IMG/VR virus record: IMGVR_UViG_2703718769_000010
Coordinates: 1-6,574 of that record
Length of the DNA stretch: 6,574 nucleotides
Source of the DNA: a virus
Taxonomy: Duplodnaviria > Heunggongvirae > Uroviricota > Caudoviricetes
Strand: one strand, 5' to 3'
Below the pieces are notes generated by a model that saw only the letters and a list, made by a program, of their open reading frames with translations, was not told where the DNA came from and did not search any database. The position numbers and the translations under genes were made by a program. Positions 1 through 6,574 of the stretch are shown in pieces (positions within the stretch are counted from its first letter, which is position 1; the number at the start of each line of letters is the position of its first letter).

Positions 1-675
1 CCGGTCAGTAACCGAACCCTGATGAGTCTGCTGGCGTCAGGCGAAGACCTGGCATCACAGGGCTGGCGCTATTATCACAAACCGGCGAGCGGAGACAGTA
101 TTGATAAAAACATCGCTGAGGCTGTGGTCAGTGATGAGGGTGCCACCGGTGGTAAGGCCCTGCAACTGAACAAACAGGAAAGCCACATCTGGTTTCTGGA
201 GCATGATGCAGCCGGGCAGGGGGCAGAGTTGCTGAAGAAAGGCGGACGTGTGAGTGTGCGGTTTAAGGTGCCGGGCTCACTGGTACAGAATCGGTTTGCC
301 CTGGGTATTTACTGGCAGTTGTCGTCCCTGCCGGAGGGGGTGTCGCTGGCAGAGGAAGGCAACGACATGCTGATGTCCTTCTTCCTGCAGACGGATGCGA
401 CGAACCTGAACGCGATGTACCACAAGACGCAGAATGTGAAGCTGGATACGTTCGGGGCATTTGATAACGAATGGCACACACTGTCTTTTGAGTTTGCCGG
501 AAACAACAGCATTCAGGTGACGCCGGTACTTGATGAGAAGCGGGGCACGCCATTCACGCTGGTGAAATCTCAGGCAACAGGGGTGGCGGATAAACTTCTG
601 CTGACTGATATCACGAAGGTGGCAACGTATACGCTGCTGATTGACAGCGTGAAGGTGGAAGTGAATAACCCGTAA
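1..675 (+). CDS. 3' end of a large late-region protein, truncated by the window edge; C-terminal beta-rich lectin/jelly-roll-like domain, possibly the C-terminal domain of a prophage NanS-p-type esterase
   Basis: Frame 1 is open from nt 1 (codons ccg gtc agt aac cga acc ctg precede the first ATG at 22); stop TAA 673-675. Sits immediately upstream of the lysis cassette, the slot for large cargo ORFs in lambdoid prophages. Family guess is from remembered synteny, not a search. Confidence 0.6.
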   Translation, partial: PVSNRTLMSLLASGEDLASQGWRYYHKPASGDSIDKNIAEAVVSDEGATGGKALQLNKQESHIWFLEHDAAGQGAELLKKGGRVSVRFKVPGSLVQNRFALGIYWQLSSLPEGVSLAEEGNDMLMSFFLQTDATNLNAMYHKTQNVKLDTFGAFDNEWHTLSFEFAGNNSIQVTPVLDEKRGTPFTLVKSQATGVADKLLLTDITKVATYTLLIDSVKVEVNNP

Positions 676-814
676 GCAGGAAAAAAAAGACCGCCGGTGC
701 AGGGAAAACAAGGAGCCAGAACCGGCGGCAGAGGTCGCTACATCCTTAGCAAACAAAAAATGCAGGACTGTTTTAACTAACGGGCATTAACCATGTCAAT
801 AATGGAGATGAATA

Positions 815-994
815 ATGACATTTTTACAGCTGATTATGTTGTATTTCTGCACGGTGGTGTGCACGTTATATCTGGTCAGTGGCGGGTATAAGGTTATCCG
901 GAACTATATACGCAAAAAGACTGATGCCGCGGCGGCGGAAAAAATCAGCACCGGTCAGTCAGCCGGAACCAGACCCGAAGAGCCGCTCATTTAG
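815..994 (+). CDS. Small hydrophobic protein, 59 aa (MTFLQLIMLYFCTVVCTLYLVSGGYKVIRNYIRKKTDAAAAEKISTGQSAGTRPEEPLI); one predicted TM helix then a basic patch
   Basis: Not in the ORF track (under 60 aa). ATG 815 is preceded by GGAGA at 804-808 with 6-nt spacing; stop TAG 992-994. It overlaps, in another frame, the GTG-initiated 5' extension of track ORF 879..1319, which I consider non-coding. Confidence 0.35.
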   Translation: MTFLQLIMLYFCTVVCTLYLVSGGYKVIRNYIRKKTDAAAAEKISTGQSAGTRPEEPLI

Positions 995-1034
995 TTGCAA
1001 TCTTCTTTACAACACCTTTCAACGAGAAAATTCC

Positions 1035-1319
1035 ATGTCAGAAATAAACCCCCTGGTCACTGCTGAGGCAGTGAAAGACGCGCTGCGCTCAGAAGATGTG
1101 CGTGGAGCACTGAAACAGAAAGTCCGCCAGACATTTGAAGCGCAGATAGAAGCGGAGGTGGATGCGATTCTGGATACGCTACTGGGCGAGCAGCCAGGCG
1201 AACAGCCAGAGCCGGAACCGCAACCGGAAGATATCACCTCAGAAAACGGCGATATTCAGCCGGAATCACCGGTGGTTGATGCGACTGAAGCACAACCCGA
1301 ACCGGGCACAATGCTGTAA
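1035..1319 (+). CDS. Small acidic hypothetical protein, 94 aa, with Pro/Glu/Gln-rich low-complexity C-terminal half
   Basis: First ATG of track ORF 879..1319 (the track start is a GTG); E. coli-like codons; weak SD (GAG at 1024-1026). Function unknown. Confidence 0.5.
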
Positions 1320-1330
1320 AGGTGAGTCAG

Positions 1331-1360
1331 GGCCATCAGTAAAGTACTGCTGGCCTTTTT
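1331..1360 (+). terminator. Intrinsic terminator-like hairpin upstream of the holin gene
   Basis: GGCCATCAG (1331-1339) pairs with CTGCTGGCC (1347-1355), one mismatch, 7-nt loop, followed by TTTTT (1356-1360). Confidence 0.5.
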
Positions 1361-1395
1361 CATGTTGTGAGCTTCCGGATTGCGGGAGACGGGGT

Positions 1396-1611
1396 ATGTA
1401 CCAGATGGAAAAAATCACAACAGGTGTGTCATACACCACGTCAGCGGTGGGGACGGGCTACTGGTTCCTGCAGCTGCTGGACAGGGTTTCCCCGTCTCAG
1501 TGGGCGGCAATAGGCGTGCTGGGGAGTCTGCTGTTTGGTCTGCTGACGTACCTGACGAACCTGTATTTCAAAATCAGAGAGGACCGTCGTAAGGCGGCAC
1601 GGGGAGAGTAG
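1396..1611 (+). CDS. S: Class II holin (pinholin, phage 21 S21-like), 71 aa, dual-start motif M1-Y-Q-M4
   Basis: [71 protein letters not shown] closely matches the S21 pinholin as I remember it (shared C-terminus [20 protein letters not shown]); two TM segments; GGGAG at 1384-1388, 7 nt before ATG 1396; second in-frame ATG at 1405. The track ORF start at 1162 is an artefactual upstream extension. Confidence 0.9.
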
Positions 1612-1614
1612 GTG

Positions 1615-2256
1615 ATGAACCATGAAGAAATGAATCAGCGCTTCAGTCGTCTGGAAAATGAAATTGCTGAACTGAATAAAAAACTGTCGGCGCTGATGCC
1701 TTCTGAAGATGCAAAAAAACGCCGCGATGAGCAGTTTGCGGCGTTTTACGATGATTGCATCAAAATTGCTCGCAGGACCTTTGCGAATATTTTGCAGGAA
1801 AAGTTTTTAGCGACCGCATTGTCAGAAAAGTACTCCATTACGGTTAAAAGTGCCGGAGAGGAAGGCAATAAACGTTATTTTATTGCGTCTGCACCGGATA
1901 AAGACCAGGAATGGGAGTGTAATCGGCCATCTTTTATTGTGAGCAGCGATGACTGGAATATCACGATCCGTGAAGATGGGAAAGTAACACCGGCATCGCA
2001 CCAGCACAGTGAGGCGCTCACTGAATTTGCCATTGATTACCTGAAGAACAATAAAAAGCAGGGGCTGATGCAGCGCATTGGTCGTTGCATGGGATATCTG
2101 CAGGTAGCTGCTGAGATTGAAGCGCTGGCCAGTGGTGCTGATAAGGATGCAGTTGTGCGGGAGACCGTTCTTCGTGATTTCAATACGCCACCCTTTAAGA
2201 AAGAGCCTGATGGCTGGATCCAGCCGGGGCTGACTTATCTCAAATGGTGCATATAG
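1615..2256 (+). CDS. Hypothetical protein X, 213 aa, N-terminal coiled-coil-like segment, no TM segment or signal peptide; unknown function
   Basis: ATG 1615 lies 3 nt after the holin stop (TAG 1609-1611), with GGGGAGAG at 1601-1608 as its RBS, suggesting translational coupling to S. Stop TAG 2254-2256. No family recognised. Confidence 0.75.
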   Translation: MNHEEMNQRFSRLENEIAELNKKLSALMPSEDAKKRRDEQFAAFYDDCIKIARRTFANILQEKFLATALSEKYSITVKSAGEEGNKRYFIASAPDKDQEWECNRPSFIVSSDDWNITIREDGKVTPASHQHSEALTEFAIDYLKNNKKQGLMQRIGRCMGYLQVAAEIEALASGADKDAVVRETVLRDFNTPPFKKEPDGWIQPGLTYLKWCI

Positions 2257-2283
2257 TAAAAGAGAAAACAATTGAGGTGAAAA

Positions 2284-2511
2284 ATGAAAAAATACGATAT
2301 GACAGTTAAATCATTCCACATGGGGGATAAAAATGTTGTCGTTGTCCTTGGTATATATAATTATCAGATTCCATCAATGCTGTTGTTCAATATTGAAATA
2401 GATATTGAACGACGGGAAGATGCTACCATTCCGTTTTATGAGGCGCTGGCTTTAAAAAAAGCAGTCTCGCTAATCCATGAAATTTCTGATGATTTAGCAG
2501 TGGCTGCTTAG
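2284..2511 (+). CDS. Hypothetical small protein Y, 75 aa; unknown function
   Basis: Strong SD GAGGT (2274-2278) 5 nt before ATG 2284; 27 nt downstream of X on the same strand, so probably co-transcribed; AT-rich relative to the flanking phage genes. Confidence 0.7.
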   Translation: MKKYDMTVKSFHMGDKNVVVVLGIYNYQIPSMLLFNIEIDIERREDATIPFYEALALKKAVSLIHEISDDLAVAA

Positions 2512-2515
2512 ATTT

Positions 2516-2803
2516 TTATTTCAAAAATGGCTCAGGACTGGTATTGCCAAACATGGGTCTTACCGGTGGTTGCATGAGGGTATTGATGGCGACTTTAATC
2601 TCTGGTTTACCTGAGGTTGTGATTTTGCTCAGTTCGCTATGTAACCTGGTTTTAAGCTCATCACTGAATTTCTTGTCTCCACTTTGCTGATCCAGAATGT
2701 CAACGATGTTGTAGAACAGGAAATTGGCTGCGGTATTTATAGCTATGTTTTCGCGCTGAAGCCCCTGAATTAGTTGAAAAAGTTCATGGTTTGATATTTC
2801 CAT
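2516..2803 (-). CDS. Hypothetical protein Z, 95 aa from the ATG at 2803 (MEISNHELFQLIQGLQ...); convergent with X-Y; unknown function
   Basis: Track ORF 2516..2866 starts at a GTG with no RBS. The internal ATG (+ 2801-2803) has AAGGAG 6 nt upstream on the minus strand; the ATG at 2833 has its SD abutting the start codon. Stop TAA (+ 2516-2518) is 4 nt from the Y stop. Confidence 0.6.
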   Translation of the reverse strand: MEISNHELFQLIQGLQRENIAINTAANFLFYNIVDILDQQSGDKKFSDELKTRLHSELSKITTSGKPEIKVAINTLMQPPVRPMFGNTSPEPFLK

Positions 2804-2927
2804 TAAGTTCTCCTTATTGAGGTTATCAGCCATCCCTCTTTTGTTACATGTGCCAGTGCCCACCACTGGCAGGCTGAAGACTTAACATATCCAGGGATTC
2901 GGAACCGATAAATCCTGATAAATATCC

Positions 2928-3461
2928 ATGAACACCAAAATCAAATACGGCCTGTCGGCTGCCGTTCTGGCGCTGATTGCCGCAGGTGCGCCTGCGCCTG
3001 AAATCCTCGACCAGTTTCTGGATGAAAAAGAAGGCAACCACACCACGGCATACCGTGATGGTGCGGGTATCTGGACCATCTGTCGCGGTGCCATTCTGGT
3101 GGATAGTAAACCTGTCGTCCCGGGCATGAAGTTGTCGAAGGAGAAATGCGACCAGGTTAACGCCATTGAACGTGATAAGGCGCTGGCATGGGTGGAGAAA
3201 AACATCAAAGTGCCACTGACGGAACCCCAGAAAGCGGGGATCGCGTCATTCTGTCCGTATAACATTGGTCCCGGTAAGTGCTTCCCGTCGACGTTTTACA
3301 GACGAATTAATGCTGGTGATCGCAGGGGAGCATGTGAGGCGATTCGCTGGTGGATTAAGGACGGTGGCAGGGACTGCCGTATTCGCTCAAATAACTGTTA
3401 CGGTCAGGTATCCCGGAGAGACCAGGAGAGCGCGCTGGCGTGCTGGGGAATCGACAGATAA
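2928..3461 (+). CDS. R: SAR-type endolysin (phage lysozyme, GH24/T4-lysozyme fold), 177 aa
   Basis: Gly/Ala-rich N-terminal signal-anchor-release segment (YGLSAAVLALIAAGAPAP) followed by the canonical catalytic spacing E-x8-D-x5-T in EGNHTTAYRDGAGIWT. SAR endolysins pair with pinholins, consistent with the S gene upstream. Confidence 0.92.
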   Translation: MNTKIKYGLSAAVLALIAAGAPAPEILDQFLDEKEGNHTTAYRDGAGIWTICRGAILVDSKPVVPGMKLSKEKCDQVNAIERDKALAWVEKNIKVPLTEPQKAGIASFCPYNIGPGKCFPSTFYRRINAGDRRGACEAIRWWIKDGGRDCRIRSNNCYGQVSRRDQESALACWGIDR

Positions 3462-3550
3462 GCAGAATATTTTGCTGATAAATGGCGTTGGCCAACGCGG
3501 GCGGATAACACGAAATCCTGCGAACTGGCAAAATGTAAGTGAGTAAAAGT

Positions 3551-3593
3551 AAAAACCCCGTTTGTTGGCAGCAAGCGGGGTTTTGTGTTTTCT
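3551..3593. terminator. Bidirectional intrinsic terminator between R and Rz
   Basis: A5 (3551-3555), 9-bp stem CCCCGTTTG (3556-3564) with CAAGCGGGG (3572-3580) including one G-U pair, 7-nt loop, then TTTTGTGTTTT (3581-3591). Confidence 0.6.
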
Positions 3594-3682
3594 GACCTTG
3601 AGTAAGGCAAGGGAGAAATTATGGGTAGGGAGGTGCTTTCCCTGTGAGGAAGTATAAAAGATTCTTTCTGAGGTTGTCCATT

Positions 3683-3796
3683 ATGAAAGGCATTGAAGTG
3701 GAGACGCCAGCCAGTCTGGATTTAACAAGAGCGGCAGCTTTTGCCATTCGTATTGTGGCCATTGCTGTTCTGGTCTGGGCAATCCGTTGGTGGTGA
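3683..3796 (+). CDS. Small membrane protein candidate, 37 aa ([37 protein letters not shown])
   Basis: Not in the ORF track. ATG 3683 with GAGG at 3670-3673; stop TGA 3794-3796 sits 1 nt before the Rz ATG at 3798; single C-terminal hydrophobic helix. Confidence 0.35.
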
Positions 3797-3797
3797 T

Positions 3798-4265
3798 ATG
3801 AACCGTGTTCTGTGTGTGGTGATTATTGTCCTGCTGGTAGCCTGTGGTGTGCTTAGTCTGGGGCTGAATCATTACCGCGATAACGCCATCACCTACAAAG
3901 CGCAGCGCGATAAAAAAGTCAGTGAGCTGAAACTGGCGAATGCCACTATTACTGATATGCAGCAGCGCCAGGGTGATGTTGCTGCGCTTGATGCCAGATA
4001 CTCGAGGGAATTAGCCGATGCGAGAGCTGAAAATGAAACTCTGCGTGCTGATGTTGCCGCTGGTCGTAAGCGCCTGCGGATCAACGCCACCTGCTCCGGT
4101 ACCGTGCGTGAAGCCCCCACCACCTCCGGCGTGGATAATGCAACCGGCCCCCGACTGGCAGACACCGCTGAATGGGATTATTTCATCCTCAGAGAACGGT
4201 TGATGACAATGCAGAAGCAGCTGGAAGGGGCGCAGGAATATATCCGCACTCAGTGCCTGAAATAA
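3798..4265 (+). CDS. Rz: Rz i-spanin (inner-membrane spanin subunit), 155 aa
   Basis: [40 protein letters not shown]...[18 protein letters not shown] aligns along its whole length with lambda Rz as I recall it; N-terminal TM segment then coiled-coil periplasmic domain. The track ORF start at 3741 is an upstream extension. Confidence 0.9.
4018..4203 (+). CDS. Rz1: Rz1 o-spanin (outer-membrane lipoprotein), 61 aa, embedded in the +1 frame of Rz
   Basis: [61 protein letters not shown]: lipobox VVSAC, proline-rich mature region, close match to lambda Rz1; lies entirely inside Rz in another frame; GAGGG at 4004-4008 upstream. Confidence 0.85.
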
Positions 4266-4465
4266 GTTTTGCTGATGCGCCGTATCGTCGCCGTATTCCC
4301 GCATTAACAGAGACCGCAGCCCGACAGGGAGACTCCTCTGCGAGAGTGTGTGGGGATAATCAAAAACGATACACACCGGGGTTTACCGCGTTAACGGAGC
4401 GCGGCGTTGTCCCCTCATAGTCGCCAGTCCGGTGCGATGGTGGAAGAAACTGGAGTTTAGACAAT

Positions 4466-4499
4466 AAAAAAAACCTGCCGGGTTGTAGCAACGGCAGGT
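4466..4499 (-). terminator. Intrinsic terminator for leftward (minus-strand) transcription
   Basis: On the minus strand: stem CCTGCCG / CGGCAGG (+ 4474-4480 / 4492-4498), 11-nt loop, followed by T8 (+ strand A8 at 4466-4473). No T-run on the + strand side, so it is unidirectional. Confidence 0.6.
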
Positions 4500-4535
4500 G
4501 ATGGCACATGCAGAAGAGAATAGTATTGTTGTTAT
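4466..4535 (-). ncRNA. Candidate ~70-nt small RNA (minus strand) ending at the 4466-4499 terminator
   Basis: Putative sigma70 promoter on the minus strand: -35 TTGAAA (+ 4564-4569), 16-nt spacer, -10 GATAAT (+ 4542-4547). No credible ORF between promoter and terminator. Purely a sequence-based prediction. Confidence 0.3.
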
Positions 4536-4541
4536 TTTTTT

Positions 4542-4569
4542 ATTATCATTTTTTCAGAGTTGTTTTCAA
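4542..4569 (-). promoter_or_regulatory. Putative sigma70 promoter (TTGAAA-16-GATAAT) for the candidate small RNA
   Basis: Hexamer matches read directly from the sequence; the -35 lies inside a 16-bp motif repeated at 5201-5216. Confidence 0.3.
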
Positions 4570-5104
4570 CTCGAAATAATCGAGCCTGAATTATAATACT
4601 TACTATGCGTTATTTACTTATATTATGCTCCATGTTGCGGGACTGGGCGGTTTCCATCAGACAGTTGAGATGAATGACGAAAAGAATATTTCTTATTGTT
4701 AAGCTTTTCTGAATAATGTTTGGAGCGTATAAAATTGCCTTTGTGGCTCCTTGTGTGTGGGGGCAGGTTTTTATAGGGTGTTGTTTACTCTTATATAACA
4801 CACTGCTTTAAGTATGTTCAGCCTTCATAGGATTATTTATGCAAGTCTGGCGTTTTAATTTTATAATGTTTGCCGCCTGAACATGATTGTGAATTTCTCC
4901 TTATTTTACTGAGTGAATCTTTAAGCGAAAAATGGGTGCAACTGCTCTCGAGAGCTTTTGTCAGTGTAGCGGCCGTATTTTTTGCTGATAACGATGCAGA
5001 AGCCACCGGATGAGATTCAGATATACCTGGAAAAAGCCTGAATTGAAAAGAAACAGGTGTAATGTGCAGCACGGCTGGGGAATAAAAAATATGTGAGCAT
5101 AATC

Positions 5105-5134
5105 AAAAAAAACTGCTGTGTTGGCGCACAGCAG
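5105..5134 (-). terminator. Intrinsic terminator for leftward transcription
   Basis: On the minus strand: perfect 8-bp stem CTGCTGTG / CACAGCAG (+ 5113-5120 / 5127-5134), 6-nt loop, followed by T8 (+ strand A8 at 5105-5112). Confidence 0.65.
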
Positions 5135-5177
5135 TAAAGATTGGATAAGGGTAGAAGATTATTATTATTATTCTTTT

Positions 5178-5216
5178 GTTTTATTTTATGTGACGGATTA
5201 TTTCAATTCGGAATAA
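5178..5216 (-). promoter_or_regulatory. Second copy of the conserved motif with a weaker promoter-like arrangement (TTGAAA-17-TAAAAC), paralogous to 4542-4579
   Basis: TTTCAATTCGGAATAA (5201-5216) versus TTTCAACTCGAAATAA (4564-4579), 14/16 identical, same orientation, each about 65-70 bp from a minus-strand terminator. The -10 here lacks the conserved final T. Confidence 0.2.
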
Positions 5217-5343
5217 CTGTAGGTAATAACTTTAAGTTATCGTAAAGCCTGCAATGTTAAGGATTAGTTATATAAAGGGGCAGAGAAACGGTCCGACCCT
5301 CTGGCCTCATTCTTTAAACTTGTTATGCGATTAGCATGTTTTC

Positions 5344-5378
5344 TTGTCAGTTGTCAGTTGTCAGTTGTCAGTTGTCAG
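5344..5378. repeat. Perfect tandem heptanucleotide repeat (TTGTCAG)x5
   Basis: Five uninterrupted copies at 5344-5350, 5351-5357, 5358-5364, 5365-5371 and 5372-5378; overlaps the 3' end and stop codon of the minus-strand RHH ORF. Confidence 0.95.
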
Positions 5379-5522
5379 TCTCCGGCGACAGGCTTCAATA
5401 ACCCACGCTGAAAAGTTACCGGACCCTTTATGCTCAAGGGCGCTGTTGATCTGTTCAATCATGTGATTGGGGAAACGGATATTGCGGGTTGTTGTTCTGC
5501 GGGTTCTGTTCTTTGATGACAT
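5361..5522 (-). CDS. Small ribbon-helix-helix (CopG/Arc/omega-like) DNA-binding protein, 53 aa (MSSKNRTRRTTTRNIRFPNHMIEQINSALEHKGSGNFSAWVIEACRRRLTTDN)
   Basis: Not in the ORF track. Hand translation of the minus strand: ATG at + 5520-5522, stop TGA at + 5361-5363. Pattern of beta strand (RNIRFP), helix A (NHMIEQINSALEH), G-x-S/N loop and helix B (FSAWVIEACRRRL) is typical of RHH proteins. Weak SD (GGGG). Confidence 0.55.
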   Translation of the reverse strand: MSSKNRTRRTTTRNIRFPNHMIEQINSALEHKGSGNFSAWVIEACRRRLTTDN

Positions 5523-5710
5523 AATGTTGCCCCATATTCAGTGTTGCTGATTTGTATTATCTGAAGTTGCTTTTACGTTAATTTGATGCAGATCAATTAA
5601 TACGATACCTGCGTCATAATTGATTATTTGACGTGGTTTGATGGCGTACACGCACGTTGTGACATGTAGATGATAATTATTATTTTGTGGGTCCTTTCCG
5701 GCGATCCGAC

Positions 5711-5740
5711 AGGTTACGGGGCGGCGACCTCGCGCGTTTT
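5711..5740 (+). other. cos: Lambda-type cos site; cosN 12-nt cohesive-end sequence GGGCGGCGACCT at 5719-5730
   Basis: GCGATCCGACAGGTTACG-GGGCGGCGACCT-CGCGCGTTTTCGCTATTTATGA matches the lambda genome-end junction as I remember it (lambda begins GGGCGGCGACCTCGCGGGTTTTCGCTATTTATGAAAATTTT). The match fades about 35 nt into the cosB side. Confidence 0.85.
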
Positions 5741-5946
5741 CGCTATTTATGAGATTTTTTGAGGGGGTGGTTGTTGTTTAATTGTTTGGTATATCTAATT
5801 GATAAGTAAGGTGAAAATAAAATAAATACAACAACCTCACGATGTATTTTGATGTCATTAATGTGAAAAAATTCAATGATATCAAATGGTTTTGTAAAAA
5901 CACATGGTTGTTGTATCGCTTTTTATCGATGACTTATGGAGAGGAG

Positions 5947-6453
5947 ATGGCCTTTTTATTGAATAAAAGTGATATGGCCTCCTCCATCGGTATCTCTGTT
6001 CAGGCATTTGATAAATGGGGCGTTCCTCCTGTTGAGCGTCGGGGGAGGGAAGTTTTTTATGACGTTAAAACTGTACTGGAGATAGATCGCGAGCGGCGAC
6101 AACACAATCAGAGAACACCTGATGACGGGGGCGATCTGGAGGAAAGGCTGCTTCGGGCCAGAGCTGAACTGACAGAAGAACAGGTCGTAGCTCAAAAACT
6201 TAAAAATCAGGTAACCGAAGGTAAGCTCATCGATTCAGACTTCTGCGTTTTCGCCCTCAGCAAGCTGGCGATGGCATTGTCCAGTACGCTTGATTCTATT
6301 CCGTTATCCATGCAGCGACAGTTCCCGGATTTAACGCCACGTCATATTGACCATCTGAAAACCCTTATTGCGAAGGGCGCAAATCAGTGTGCGCGGGCAG
6401 AGGATAAATTACCGGATTTGCTGGATGAATATATCAGAGCAACAACTGAATAA
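5947..6453 (+). CDS. nu1: Terminase small subunit (lambda Nu1-like), 168 aa from the ATG at 5947
   Basis: C-terminal two-thirds aligns with lambda Nu1 (FCVFALSKLAMALSSTLDSIPLSMQRQFPDLTPRHIDHLK vs FCTFVLSRIAGEIASILDGLPLSVQRRFPELENRHVDFLK); GGAGAGGAG directly upstream of ATG 5947. Track start 5842 and the ATG at 5929 lack an RBS and would fall in cosB. Confidence 0.88.
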   Translation: MAFLLNKSDMASSIGISVQAFDKWGVPPVERRGREVFYDVKTVLEIDRERRQHNQRTPDDGGDLEERLLRARAELTEEQVVAQKLKNQVTEGKLIDSDFCVFALSKLAMALSSTLDSIPLSMQRQFPDLTPRHIDHLKTLIAKGANQCARAEDKLPDLLDEYIRATTE

Positions 6454-6574
6454 TCTGATGGTTGCCGTTTCGGTTGCGCTGCAGCCTCTGGTCAGGGGTG
6501 TACCGATGACGGCAGTTGAATGGGCTGACCAGTATTATTATCTGCCGAAAGAATCCTCATACGGGGACGGAGAA
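6425..6574 (+). CDS. A: Terminase large subunit (lambda gpA-like), N-terminal 50 codons, truncated by the window end
   Basis: MNISEQQLNNLMVAVSVALQPLVRGVPMTAVEWADQYYYLPKESSYGDGE aligns with the lambda gpA N-terminus (MNISNSQVNRLRHF...PQTAVEWADRYYYLPKESAYQ); overlaps the end of nu1 by 29 nt, as in lambda. Not in the ORF track. Confidence 0.85.
   Translation, partial: MNISEQQLNNLMVAVSVALQPLVRGVPMTAVEWADQYYYLPKESSYGDGE

Follow-up and report, generated by a model that had tools for sequence, protein, structure and literature searches.

Two probable small RNA genes of the HnrS family in the gap between Rz and a DUF3950 gene of a lambdoid Escherichia coli prophage

The window analysed here (the whole stretch of 6,574 nucleotides, positions 1 to 6,574 of the IMG/VR virus record IMGVR_UViG_2703718769_000010) is the late region of a lambdoid Escherichia coli prophage, as judged from the identification of its genes with Pfam, and within it are two short leftward units that are probably small RNA (sRNA) genes of the HnrS family. 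A lysozyme gene lies at 2928-3461, the Rz spanin gene on the plus strand (3798-4265; Pfam Phage_lysis, 1.3e-47) marks the end of the lysis cassette, and Rz1 is embedded in Rz (4018-4203; Pfam Rz1, 3.7e-21). Further to the right is a minus-strand gene of the DUF3950 / YlcI-YnfO family (5361-5522; Pfam DUF3950, 4.5e-19), called the ribbon-helix-helix (RHH) gene in an earlier note on this DNA, with the family assignment also found in the RefSeq annotation of a near-identical locus, and then a Nu1-type small terminase gene (5842-6453). Bases 5374-5700 have 89% identity to the right end of lambda, cosQ included. Loci nearly identical to this one are present in E. coli OkiPb01678, OkiPb01712, ST865 and ST866. 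Between Rz and the DUF3950 gene is a gap of 1.1 kb that carries no RefSeq annotation in near-identical genomes, and it is in this gap that both units, module A (4466-4579) and module B (5105-5216), are found on the minus strand.

The earlier note had described a leftward terminator followed by a 16-bp motif as occurring twice in this gap, about 640 bp apart, and this description is accurate in all of its coordinates, with the units separated by 636-638 bp. The motif is TTTCAATTCGGAATAA at 5201-5216 and TTTCAACTCGAAATAA at 4564-4579, the two being identical at 14 of 16 positions and in the same orientation. When up to 2 mismatches are allowed these are the only 2 sites in the window, with 0 found in 200 dinucleotide-preserving shuffles. 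It is the whole unit of ~117 bp that is duplicated, and the modules are paralogous as had been proposed, since 4462-4579 and 5100-5216 are collinear with a local alignment score of 33 compared to 10.3 +/- 1.7 for 2000 dinucleotide shuffles, none of which reached 33 (z = 13). The flanks of both units have no similarity above chance (left z = 1.1, right z = 0.4), which rules out a larger duplicated block, and because the collinear repeat ends at the unit boundaries the thing that has been duplicated is exactly one unit, running from the 16-mer to the terminator. Only two copies in the window are recovered by a covariance model of the family, module A with 116 bits and module B with 111 bits, the next best match having 11.6 bits. 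A third copy had been considered near cos, where there are repeats at 5663-5688, these are a low-complexity similarity in the lambda-like cos region and the covariance model has no match there. The duplication is real and non-random, and what accounts for it is a type of element already described, the Hfq sRNA genes of prophages that belong to the HnrS family. Both units read leftward, and the TTGAAA hexamer common to them is the -35 element of a promoter directed towards the terminator; paralogy, direction and the reading of the -35 hexamer had thus all been anticipated, whilst the identity of the modules as a pair of Hfq-type HnrS-family sRNA genes had not been reached.

Module B (5105-5216, minus strand) is, from homology and the covariance model, a complete sRNA gene and a variant allele of hnrS, which is also known as EcOnc10/11/12. 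On the minus strand its 16-bp motif reads TTATTCCGAATTGAAA and is made up of the -35 hexamer TTGAAA (5201-5206) and the 10 conserved bases upstream of it. The predicted -10 hexamer TAAAAC (5178-5183) lies 17 bp past the -35, in the position that is taken by TAAAAA in the Sakai hnrS promoter, and is 7 nt upstream of the likely start. Transcription is predicted to start near 5171, a position placed by homology, and would halt at an intrinsic terminator to give a primary transcript of ~67 nt (AUAAUAAUAAUAAUCUUCUACCCUUAUCCAAUCUUUACUGCUGUGCGCCAACACAGCAGUUUUUUUU, 5105-5171). The terminator (5105-5135) is reported by a consensus scan and is also apparent in the fold, its stem ACUGCUGUG/CACAGCAGU has 9 bp of which 5 are G-C pairs, with a loop of 6 nt (CGCCAA) and U8; this is the leftward terminator that had been noted, with the minus-strand stem at 5112-5135 and A8 on the plus strand at 5105-5112. 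The predicted RNA folds into a single-stranded 5' part and the terminator hairpin (-14.0 kcal/mol, z = -5.7). Features of the Hfq type can be seen in the sequence, in which the 5' end carries (AAU)4 and the 3' part is a hairpin followed by U8, with (AAU)4 fitting the A-R-N motif that has been reported for Hfq binding (Tree et al. 2014, PMC4104026). A layout of this kind, with an A-A-N-rich single-stranded 5' half, a 3' hairpin and U8, is the usual one for an Hfq-dependent sRNA.

The identity of module B becomes clear when it is compared with other prophages. By BLAST it has 79.9-81.3% identity, in alignments of 122-133 nt (E ~1e-22), to the sequence that separates Rz from the DUF3950 gene in Shiga toxin (Stx) phages and in the Sakai prophages Sp9/Sp10/Sp12, and from promoter to terminator the global identity to Sakai hnrS is 83%. 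The order of genes around module B is the same in the annotated Sakai Sp9/10/12 and in BP-4795, with ECs_1967 being the DUF3950-type neighbour of Sakai hnrS. The stretch of 190 nt after Rz in the window is also present in BP-4795, many Stx phages and Sakai Sp9/Sp10/Sp12, where a single B-type unit comes directly after it. EcOnc10, 11 and 12 were described as orphan peaks of equal height in Sp12, Sp10 and Sp9 respectively, obtained by Hfq cross-linking and analysis of cDNA (CRAC) (Table S2; PMC4104026). The EcOnc coordinates of Tree et al. refer to an older version of the Sakai genome, and an offset of ~+140 bp was derived by way of the AgvB1 northern probe; near 1.94 Mb the coordinates in Table S2 are ~140 bp below those of NC_002695.2, and unshifted they point to the wrong part of the intergenic region. 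With the offset applied EcOnc11 is at 1946959-1947007, where the RNA of the minus strand is CAAUAAUAAUCUUCUACCCAAUCAGUACAUUACUGCUGUGACUCCAACA, the body together with the 5' terminator arm of the B-type unit of Sakai. In the inverted prophage Sp12 the position obtained in this way is consistent within 5 nt, and the peaks coincide with this part of the unit whichever way the prophage is oriented.

EcOnc10-12 have since been renamed HnrS (Poudyal et al., PLoS Pathog 2026; bioRxiv 2025; PMC13502914). HnrS is an Hfq-associated RNA of 66 nt, for which there is a primary start from differential RNA-seq (dRNA-seq, terminator exonuclease (TEX)-treated libraries), a 3' end from Term-seq and a band on northern blots, with up to nine copies per genome and one per prophage (PMC13502914). 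Its repression of hha, through pairing with the ribosome-binding site AGAAG, was established with compensatory mutations, and over 15 nt it is also perfectly complementary to the final five codons of mazF, a match for which no functional consequence was found (PMC13502914). The RNA builds up early in stationary phase (PMC13502914). A reconstruction of the Sakai RNA that begins at the homologous start base and takes in the whole U-run is exactly 66 nt long, it reproduces the 15-nt mazF pairing (GUACUGAUUGGGUAG, -27.1 kcal/mol, 15 consecutive pairs) and it also reproduces the CUUCUACC / GGUAGAAG pairing at hha -10 to +4. Because the reconstruction gives both the length and the two published pairings, the identification with HnrS holds independently of the coordinates. 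We put the probability that module B is an sRNA gene and a new hnrS allele, with module A its paralogue and the two an HnrS-family pair, at roughly 0.85; for the window alleles themselves, expression, Hfq binding and targets are inferred from sequence.

The earlier note had raised the possibility that the second copy is a decayed paralogue with a degenerate -10. This does not fit with module B being the copy nearest to the experimentally expressed hnrS of O157 Sakai (83% identity), nor is the -10 a sign of decay, as TAAAAC matches the Sakai TAAAAA in place and form and the Sakai gene is expressed.

Module B can thus be read as a minus-strand sRNA gene between Rz and the DUF3950/ylcI gene that is antisense to late transcription, with an action that probably resembles that of its Sakai counterpart. 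The hha-pairing stretch (5149-5163, minus strand) is identical to that of Sakai HnrS, as are all of RNA nt 6-23 in which this seed is included, and the predicted CUUCUACC / GGUAGAAG duplex over hha -10 to +4 has the same energy as with Sakai HnrS (-12.1 kcal/mol). Module B should therefore pair with the hha Shine-Dalgarno region, this would block the translation of hha, and the block would in turn be expected to weaken the silencing of horizontally acquired genes by Hha/H-NS. HnrS is reportedly the first phage-encoded sRNA that counteracts xenogeneic silencing, which it does through repression of hha (PMC13502914).

The second published pairing is a different matter. RNA nt 24-35 and the terminator loop of module B are unlike those of Sakai HnrS, and because nt 24-35 differ the perfect 15-nt complementarity to mazF is absent, the predicted interaction having -15.2 kcal/mol and no continuous helix. 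The lost match is not counted against membership of HnrS, as the published work does not treat mazF as a functional target. Among natural hnrS alleles the main variable stretch is 5136-5148 (RNA nt 24-36 of module B). The match to the 3' end of mazF is a perfect 15 nt in Sakai HnrS, partial in the allele of the type found at the locus L003 (L numbers are our labels) and missing in the window allele, with the hha seed invariant throughout. Natural hnrS alleles thus vary in the mazF-pairing stretch and keep the hha seed, which fits the published finding that hha and not mazF is the target.

Module A (4466-4579, minus strand) has been delimited by a promoter scan, alignment and the covariance model, and is probably a paralogous sRNA gene. 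Its -35 hexamer TTGAAA is at 4564-4569 and the -10 hexamer GATAAT is at 4542-4547, with a spacer of 16 bp and a promoter scan score of 10 of 12. The predicted transcript has 70 nt and would run from 4535 to 4466, ending at a terminator found by folding that has its stem at 4474-4480/4492-4498 and U8 at 4466-4473 (A8 on the plus strand), this terminator is missed by the consensus scan because its loop exceeds 8 nt. The 5' end of module A, AUAACAAC, is homologous to the 5' end of HnrS, AUAACAAU; both RNAs of the window start with AUAA(U/C)AA, and in each the 5' half consists of A-A-N triplets and is unpaired in the predicted fold. Compared with the Sakai hnrS unit module A has a local score of 28 against 9.8 +/- 1.8 for shuffled sequence (z = 10.3) and a global identity of 68%. 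It keeps the CUUCU core and has GCAUG in place of ACCC. From these comparisons module A is a diverged paralogue of hnrS that forms a separate clade, with a different and independently conserved central region, a block of 20 nt, UUCUCUUCUGCAUGUGCCAU (RNA nt 16-35, 4501-4520, minus strand), that is a candidate seed. The promoter motif, the 5' AUAACAA and the terminator design are the same as in the HnrS type, and because the central region differs and is separately conserved module A most likely has targets other than, or in addition to, those of HnrS.

We found no description of an A-type unit in the literature, where a full-text search for the RNA sequences matched no paper. That the A-type unit is an undescribed Hfq-dependent sRNA with a regulon unlike that of HnrS by virtue of the UUCUCUUCUGCAUGUGCCAU block is a proposal to which we give even odds. 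EcOnc33, a Sakai sRNA of ~71 nt in Sp6, was considered as the counterpart of the A-type unit and was rejected, as neither the sequence of its probe nor its location past the esterase gene fits. Pairing with hha was also considered for the A-type RNA of the window and did not stand out, the duplex energy being indistinguishable from that of shuffles. For the other A lineages the predicted duplex with hha has -13.5 kcal/mol (equalled by 11% of shuffles) and -17.7 kcal/mol (5%).

The pattern of conservation within the units is consistent with their being genes. Over all A- and B-type units the columns of the 16-mer are 88-96% conserved, compared to 40-78% in the adjoining spacer, and 12 of its 16 columns are invariant (10 distinct sequences). 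Because so many columns are invariant the -35 hexamer alone is insufficient as an explanation, and the ten bases upstream of it (TTATTCCGAA, sense strand) are possibly a regulator site or an UP-like element. Across the three lineages of the A clade conservation is 88% in the -35 motif, 42% in the spacer, 89% in the -10, 44% in the discriminator, 52% in the 5' region, 94% in the central body and 74% in the terminator, and in the B clade the 5' region with the seed is 95% conserved. When the A clade is compared with the B clade, conservation is 88% for the -35 motif and only 33% for the body, with the identity of whole units being 73-77% within A, 83-89% within B and 65-72% for A vs B. Such a segmental pattern would be expected of a transcribed gene in which promoter elements and a pairing region are under selection, the pairing region being specific to the clade. 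Over 10 distinct sequences 100% of the cells in the terminator stem of the family are paired, and at 2 pairs both partners have changed (from A-U to C-G at one, and from C-G through U-G to U-A at the other), whereas sliding the 3' partner by 1-3 columns as a control leaves pairing in 17-53% of cells. This covariation is supportive, not decisive.

Both kinds of unit are found beyond the window. B-type units occur in 568 of 5426 complete E. coli genomes, at a median of 2 places and up to 5, mostly in the Sakai-like form; the B allele of the window is rare, being found in 4 genomes at >=95% identity vs ~485 with the Sakai-like form. A-type units are found in 135 of the complete E. coli genomes, 43 of which have a full-length unit of the prophage type, and none were found among 50,697 deposited phage genomes. 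A scan of a species-level genome collection with the 15-mer TTCAATTCGGAATWA gave chance matches in unrelated phyla only, the pattern being too short. In IMG/VR there are 17 contigs with an A-type word and at least 11 of these also have a co-oriented B-type unit 644-665 bp off, so the tandem arrangement of A and B is a recurrent one and not a peculiarity of the window. The pair has been kept in two lineages though the identity of the spacer between the units is down to 40-80%.

Three lineages of A-type units can be told apart. The first is that of the window and includes the loci L002 and L137, the second is ~79% identical and is found in strains such as GB089 and in IMG/VR contigs (the loci L003, L008 and L139-L153), whilst the third (L015, L016) is in a non-prophage island, beside an AraC-family regulator, a DUF1187 gene and IS66 remnants. 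In the island the unit is on the minus strand at 2506-2618 of L015 and 2506-2617 of L016, ~380 bp upstream of the AraC-family regulator gene and co-oriented with it, and this island form makes up most of the partial A-type matches, in ~90 E. coli genomes. A-type units with no B-type unit to their right are found at 4101-4210 of L149, 58-167 of L150 and 686-795 of L152. In all three the unit comes after the lysis genes and the likeness to the window stops just right of the unit (4627-4633); in L149 a different terminase module (open reading frames (ORFs) of 363 and 442 aa) then follows with the B-type unit absent, and the 3' arm of the terminator is mutated (CGGTAG). As L149, L150 and L152 carry A without B, the two units assort independently in the phage mosaic.

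A number of points weigh against reading the two modules as HnrS-family sRNA genes. Expression, both of the window alleles and of every A-type unit, is an inference only, and the -10 of module B is without the usually invariant last T. The HnrS-hha duplex, at -12.1 kcal/mol, barely beats shuffled sRNA bodies, 5-9% of which equal it, and because of this the argument for hha pairing by module B rests on identity to a validated seed. For the A unit of the window the duplex with hha (-11.6 kcal/mol) is at background, as 43% of shuffled bodies equal it. The offset between the versions of the Sakai genome was inferred from one probe and not from a coordinate map, and the covariation statistics have little power because only six sequence lineages exist.

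It could be argued that module B is only the 3' untranslated region (UTR) and terminator of the DUF3950/RHH gene, with the 16-mer an unrelated conserved site and no independent transcript, as the earlier note had offered for the second copy. The terminator of module B is the first convincing minus-strand terminator past the DUF3950 stop, thus read-through would end there, and in Sakai and BP-4795 a DUF3950 gene is also directly upstream in the same orientation. However, the Sakai homologue is an independent transcription unit with a primary start, a Term-seq 3' end and a 66-nt northern band (PMC13502914), the geometry of -35, spacer and -10 is conserved, and A-type units exist that have no DUF3950 gene upstream, namely in L149/L150/L152 and the island loci L015/L016. 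A 3' UTR is therefore not the main explanation and as the whole account we regard it as rather improbable, although the terminator of module B may in addition stop read-through from the DUF3950/RHH gene.

A second alternative is that one or both units are decayed 'empty morons', in which promoter and terminator were left behind after the loss of a gene. In lambda bor is a leftward moron just right of Rz, it has its own promoter and terminator and is directed against the late operon, and its product is a lipoprotein. Its slot, immediately right of Rz, is the same as that of the window units, and the presence of this moron at that position favours such an origin. The weak -10 of module B and the indirect case for expression of the window alleles also favour it. 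The window units differ from bor in having no conserved ORF, with RNAs of ~70 nt predicted instead. Conservation is also selective, with the hexamers and body of the A clade at 88-94% compared to 42-44% for the spacer and discriminator, the terminator stems stay paired through two-sided changes, the seed of module B is identical to that of a functional sRNA, and the tandem pair is retained in two lineages despite the divergence of its spacer. Empty morons are thus distinctly improbable as an account of the units. That the plus strand encodes small hydrophobic peptides, the two forming a type I toxin-antitoxin pair in which the minus-strand RNA is the antisense antitoxin, is exceedingly improbable, as the 32-codon plus-strand ORFs at 4498-4596 and 5118-5216, which do span terminator to 16-mer and in the A unit have a hydrophobic core (IVVIFLLSFF), read the shared 16-mer in different frames, both start at GTG and are interrupted among units by 1- and 2-nt indels, and the published function of the B-type RNA is trans-acting.

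A pair of HnrS-family sRNA genes remains the preferred explanation, and it can be set against the prophage sRNAs already described. With Sakai HnrS, module B shares the strand and the genomic slot (Rz, 190-nt stretch, sRNA, DUF3950 gene, terminase) as well as the -35 motif, spacing, 5' end, hha stretch and terminator design, with 67 vs 66 nt. Module A shares the promoter motif, the 5' AUAACAA, the CUUCU core and the terminator, and is only 65-72% identical to B-type units. The window prophage differs in having two members of the family, where a single copy per prophage has been reported. Searches with Rfam covariance models found nothing relevant in the window at E <= 1, only a chance SNORD47 match at 2267-2337, and at E <= 0.1 there was no match in the Sakai Sp10 locus or the island loci; the Sakai hnrS locus matches no model of Rfam 15.

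AgvB and AsxR are Hfq-bound anti-sRNAs of 51-60 nt from the late regions of lambdoid prophages in enterohaemorrhagic E. coli (EHEC) (Tree et al. 2014, PMC4104026). Like the window units they are antisense to late transcription and belong to families in which the 3' part is conserved and the pairing region varies. They differ in their locus, which comes after the Q-dependent late promoter PR' and ahead of the lysis genes, and in being sponges of core sRNAs that do not act on an mRNA ribosome-binding site; they have no sequence similarity to the window units and their Rfam models have no match in the window. The Pas sRNAs (PasA-D) of prophages in enteropathogenic E. coli (EPEC) are of the Hfq type and multicopy (Pearl Mizrahi et al. 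2021; Zhu, Shabalina and Storz 2026 preprint). They too are borne by prophages, have allelic variants and pairs of paralogues (PasA/PasC, PasD1/PasD2) and are spread by prophage acquisition, but they are positioned between an esterase gene and holin, between Q and holin, or between tail genes. Identity with Pas is ruled out, as the family model R1 has no match in the four Pas loci of E2348/69 and the positions differ.

If the A-type unit does encode an Hfq-dependent sRNA with a regulon of its own, some prophages would carry a cassette of two sRNA genes at the junction of the lysis and packaging genes, and the A-type gene would also have moved alone, into a non-prophage island adjacent to an AraC-family regulator gene and into phages with a different terminase module. 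The sRNA gene would then be a minimal mobile unit of ~117 bp, comprising promoter, seed and terminator, that diversifies by swapping of the seed. As observed here, the HnrS family has at least two clades with different pairing regions, and these can stand in tandem in one prophage. In E. coli, Shiga-toxin-producing strains included, the A clade is a candidate when new regulators linked to virulence are sought. For annotation it means that a 'non-coding' gap of ~1.1 kb, left unannotated by RefSeq, holds two likely genes.

Other parts of the gap and its borders also show structure. Directly after Rz is the GC-rich stretch of 190 nt (4266-4455), which is 95-100% identical in otherwise mosaic prophages (Sakai Sp9/10/12, BP-4795, L003/L008), with identity among these prophages falling to 40-80% to the right of it. 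It has no Rfam match, its predicted fold is ordinary on both strands (z = -0.27 and +0.67) and no explanation for its conservation was found. At the other end of the gap the 7-nt unit TTGTCAG (AACTGAC when read on the coding strand) is repeated perfectly in tandem 5.1 times, in an array that occupies 5344-5379 and overlaps the final codons and stop codon of the DUF3950 gene. As TGA is present in every frame of the repeat, slippage of the array would alter only a few residues at the C-terminus of the DUF3950 protein. The region of ~80 nt between the hnrS-like promoter and the DUF3950 stop (5279-5360) is missing from L003/L008 and the Sakai-type loci (0-5% aligned identity), and contains a GC-rich inverted repeat (GGCAGAG...CTCTGGCC).

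Within the 500-bp spacer between the two units, the minus-strand ORFs at 4610-4801 and 4833-5072 were considered as genes and rejected, having no Pfam match and non-triplet indels between the window and L003. In the same comparison with L003 two segments of the spacer, 4805-4844 and 4962-5079, keep 78-80% identity with their neighbours at 40-68%, and neither a conserved ORF nor a known RNA accounts for them. At 5004-5012 the plus strand (AUGCAGAAG) is complementary to 9 nt of the conserved block of the A-type RNA.

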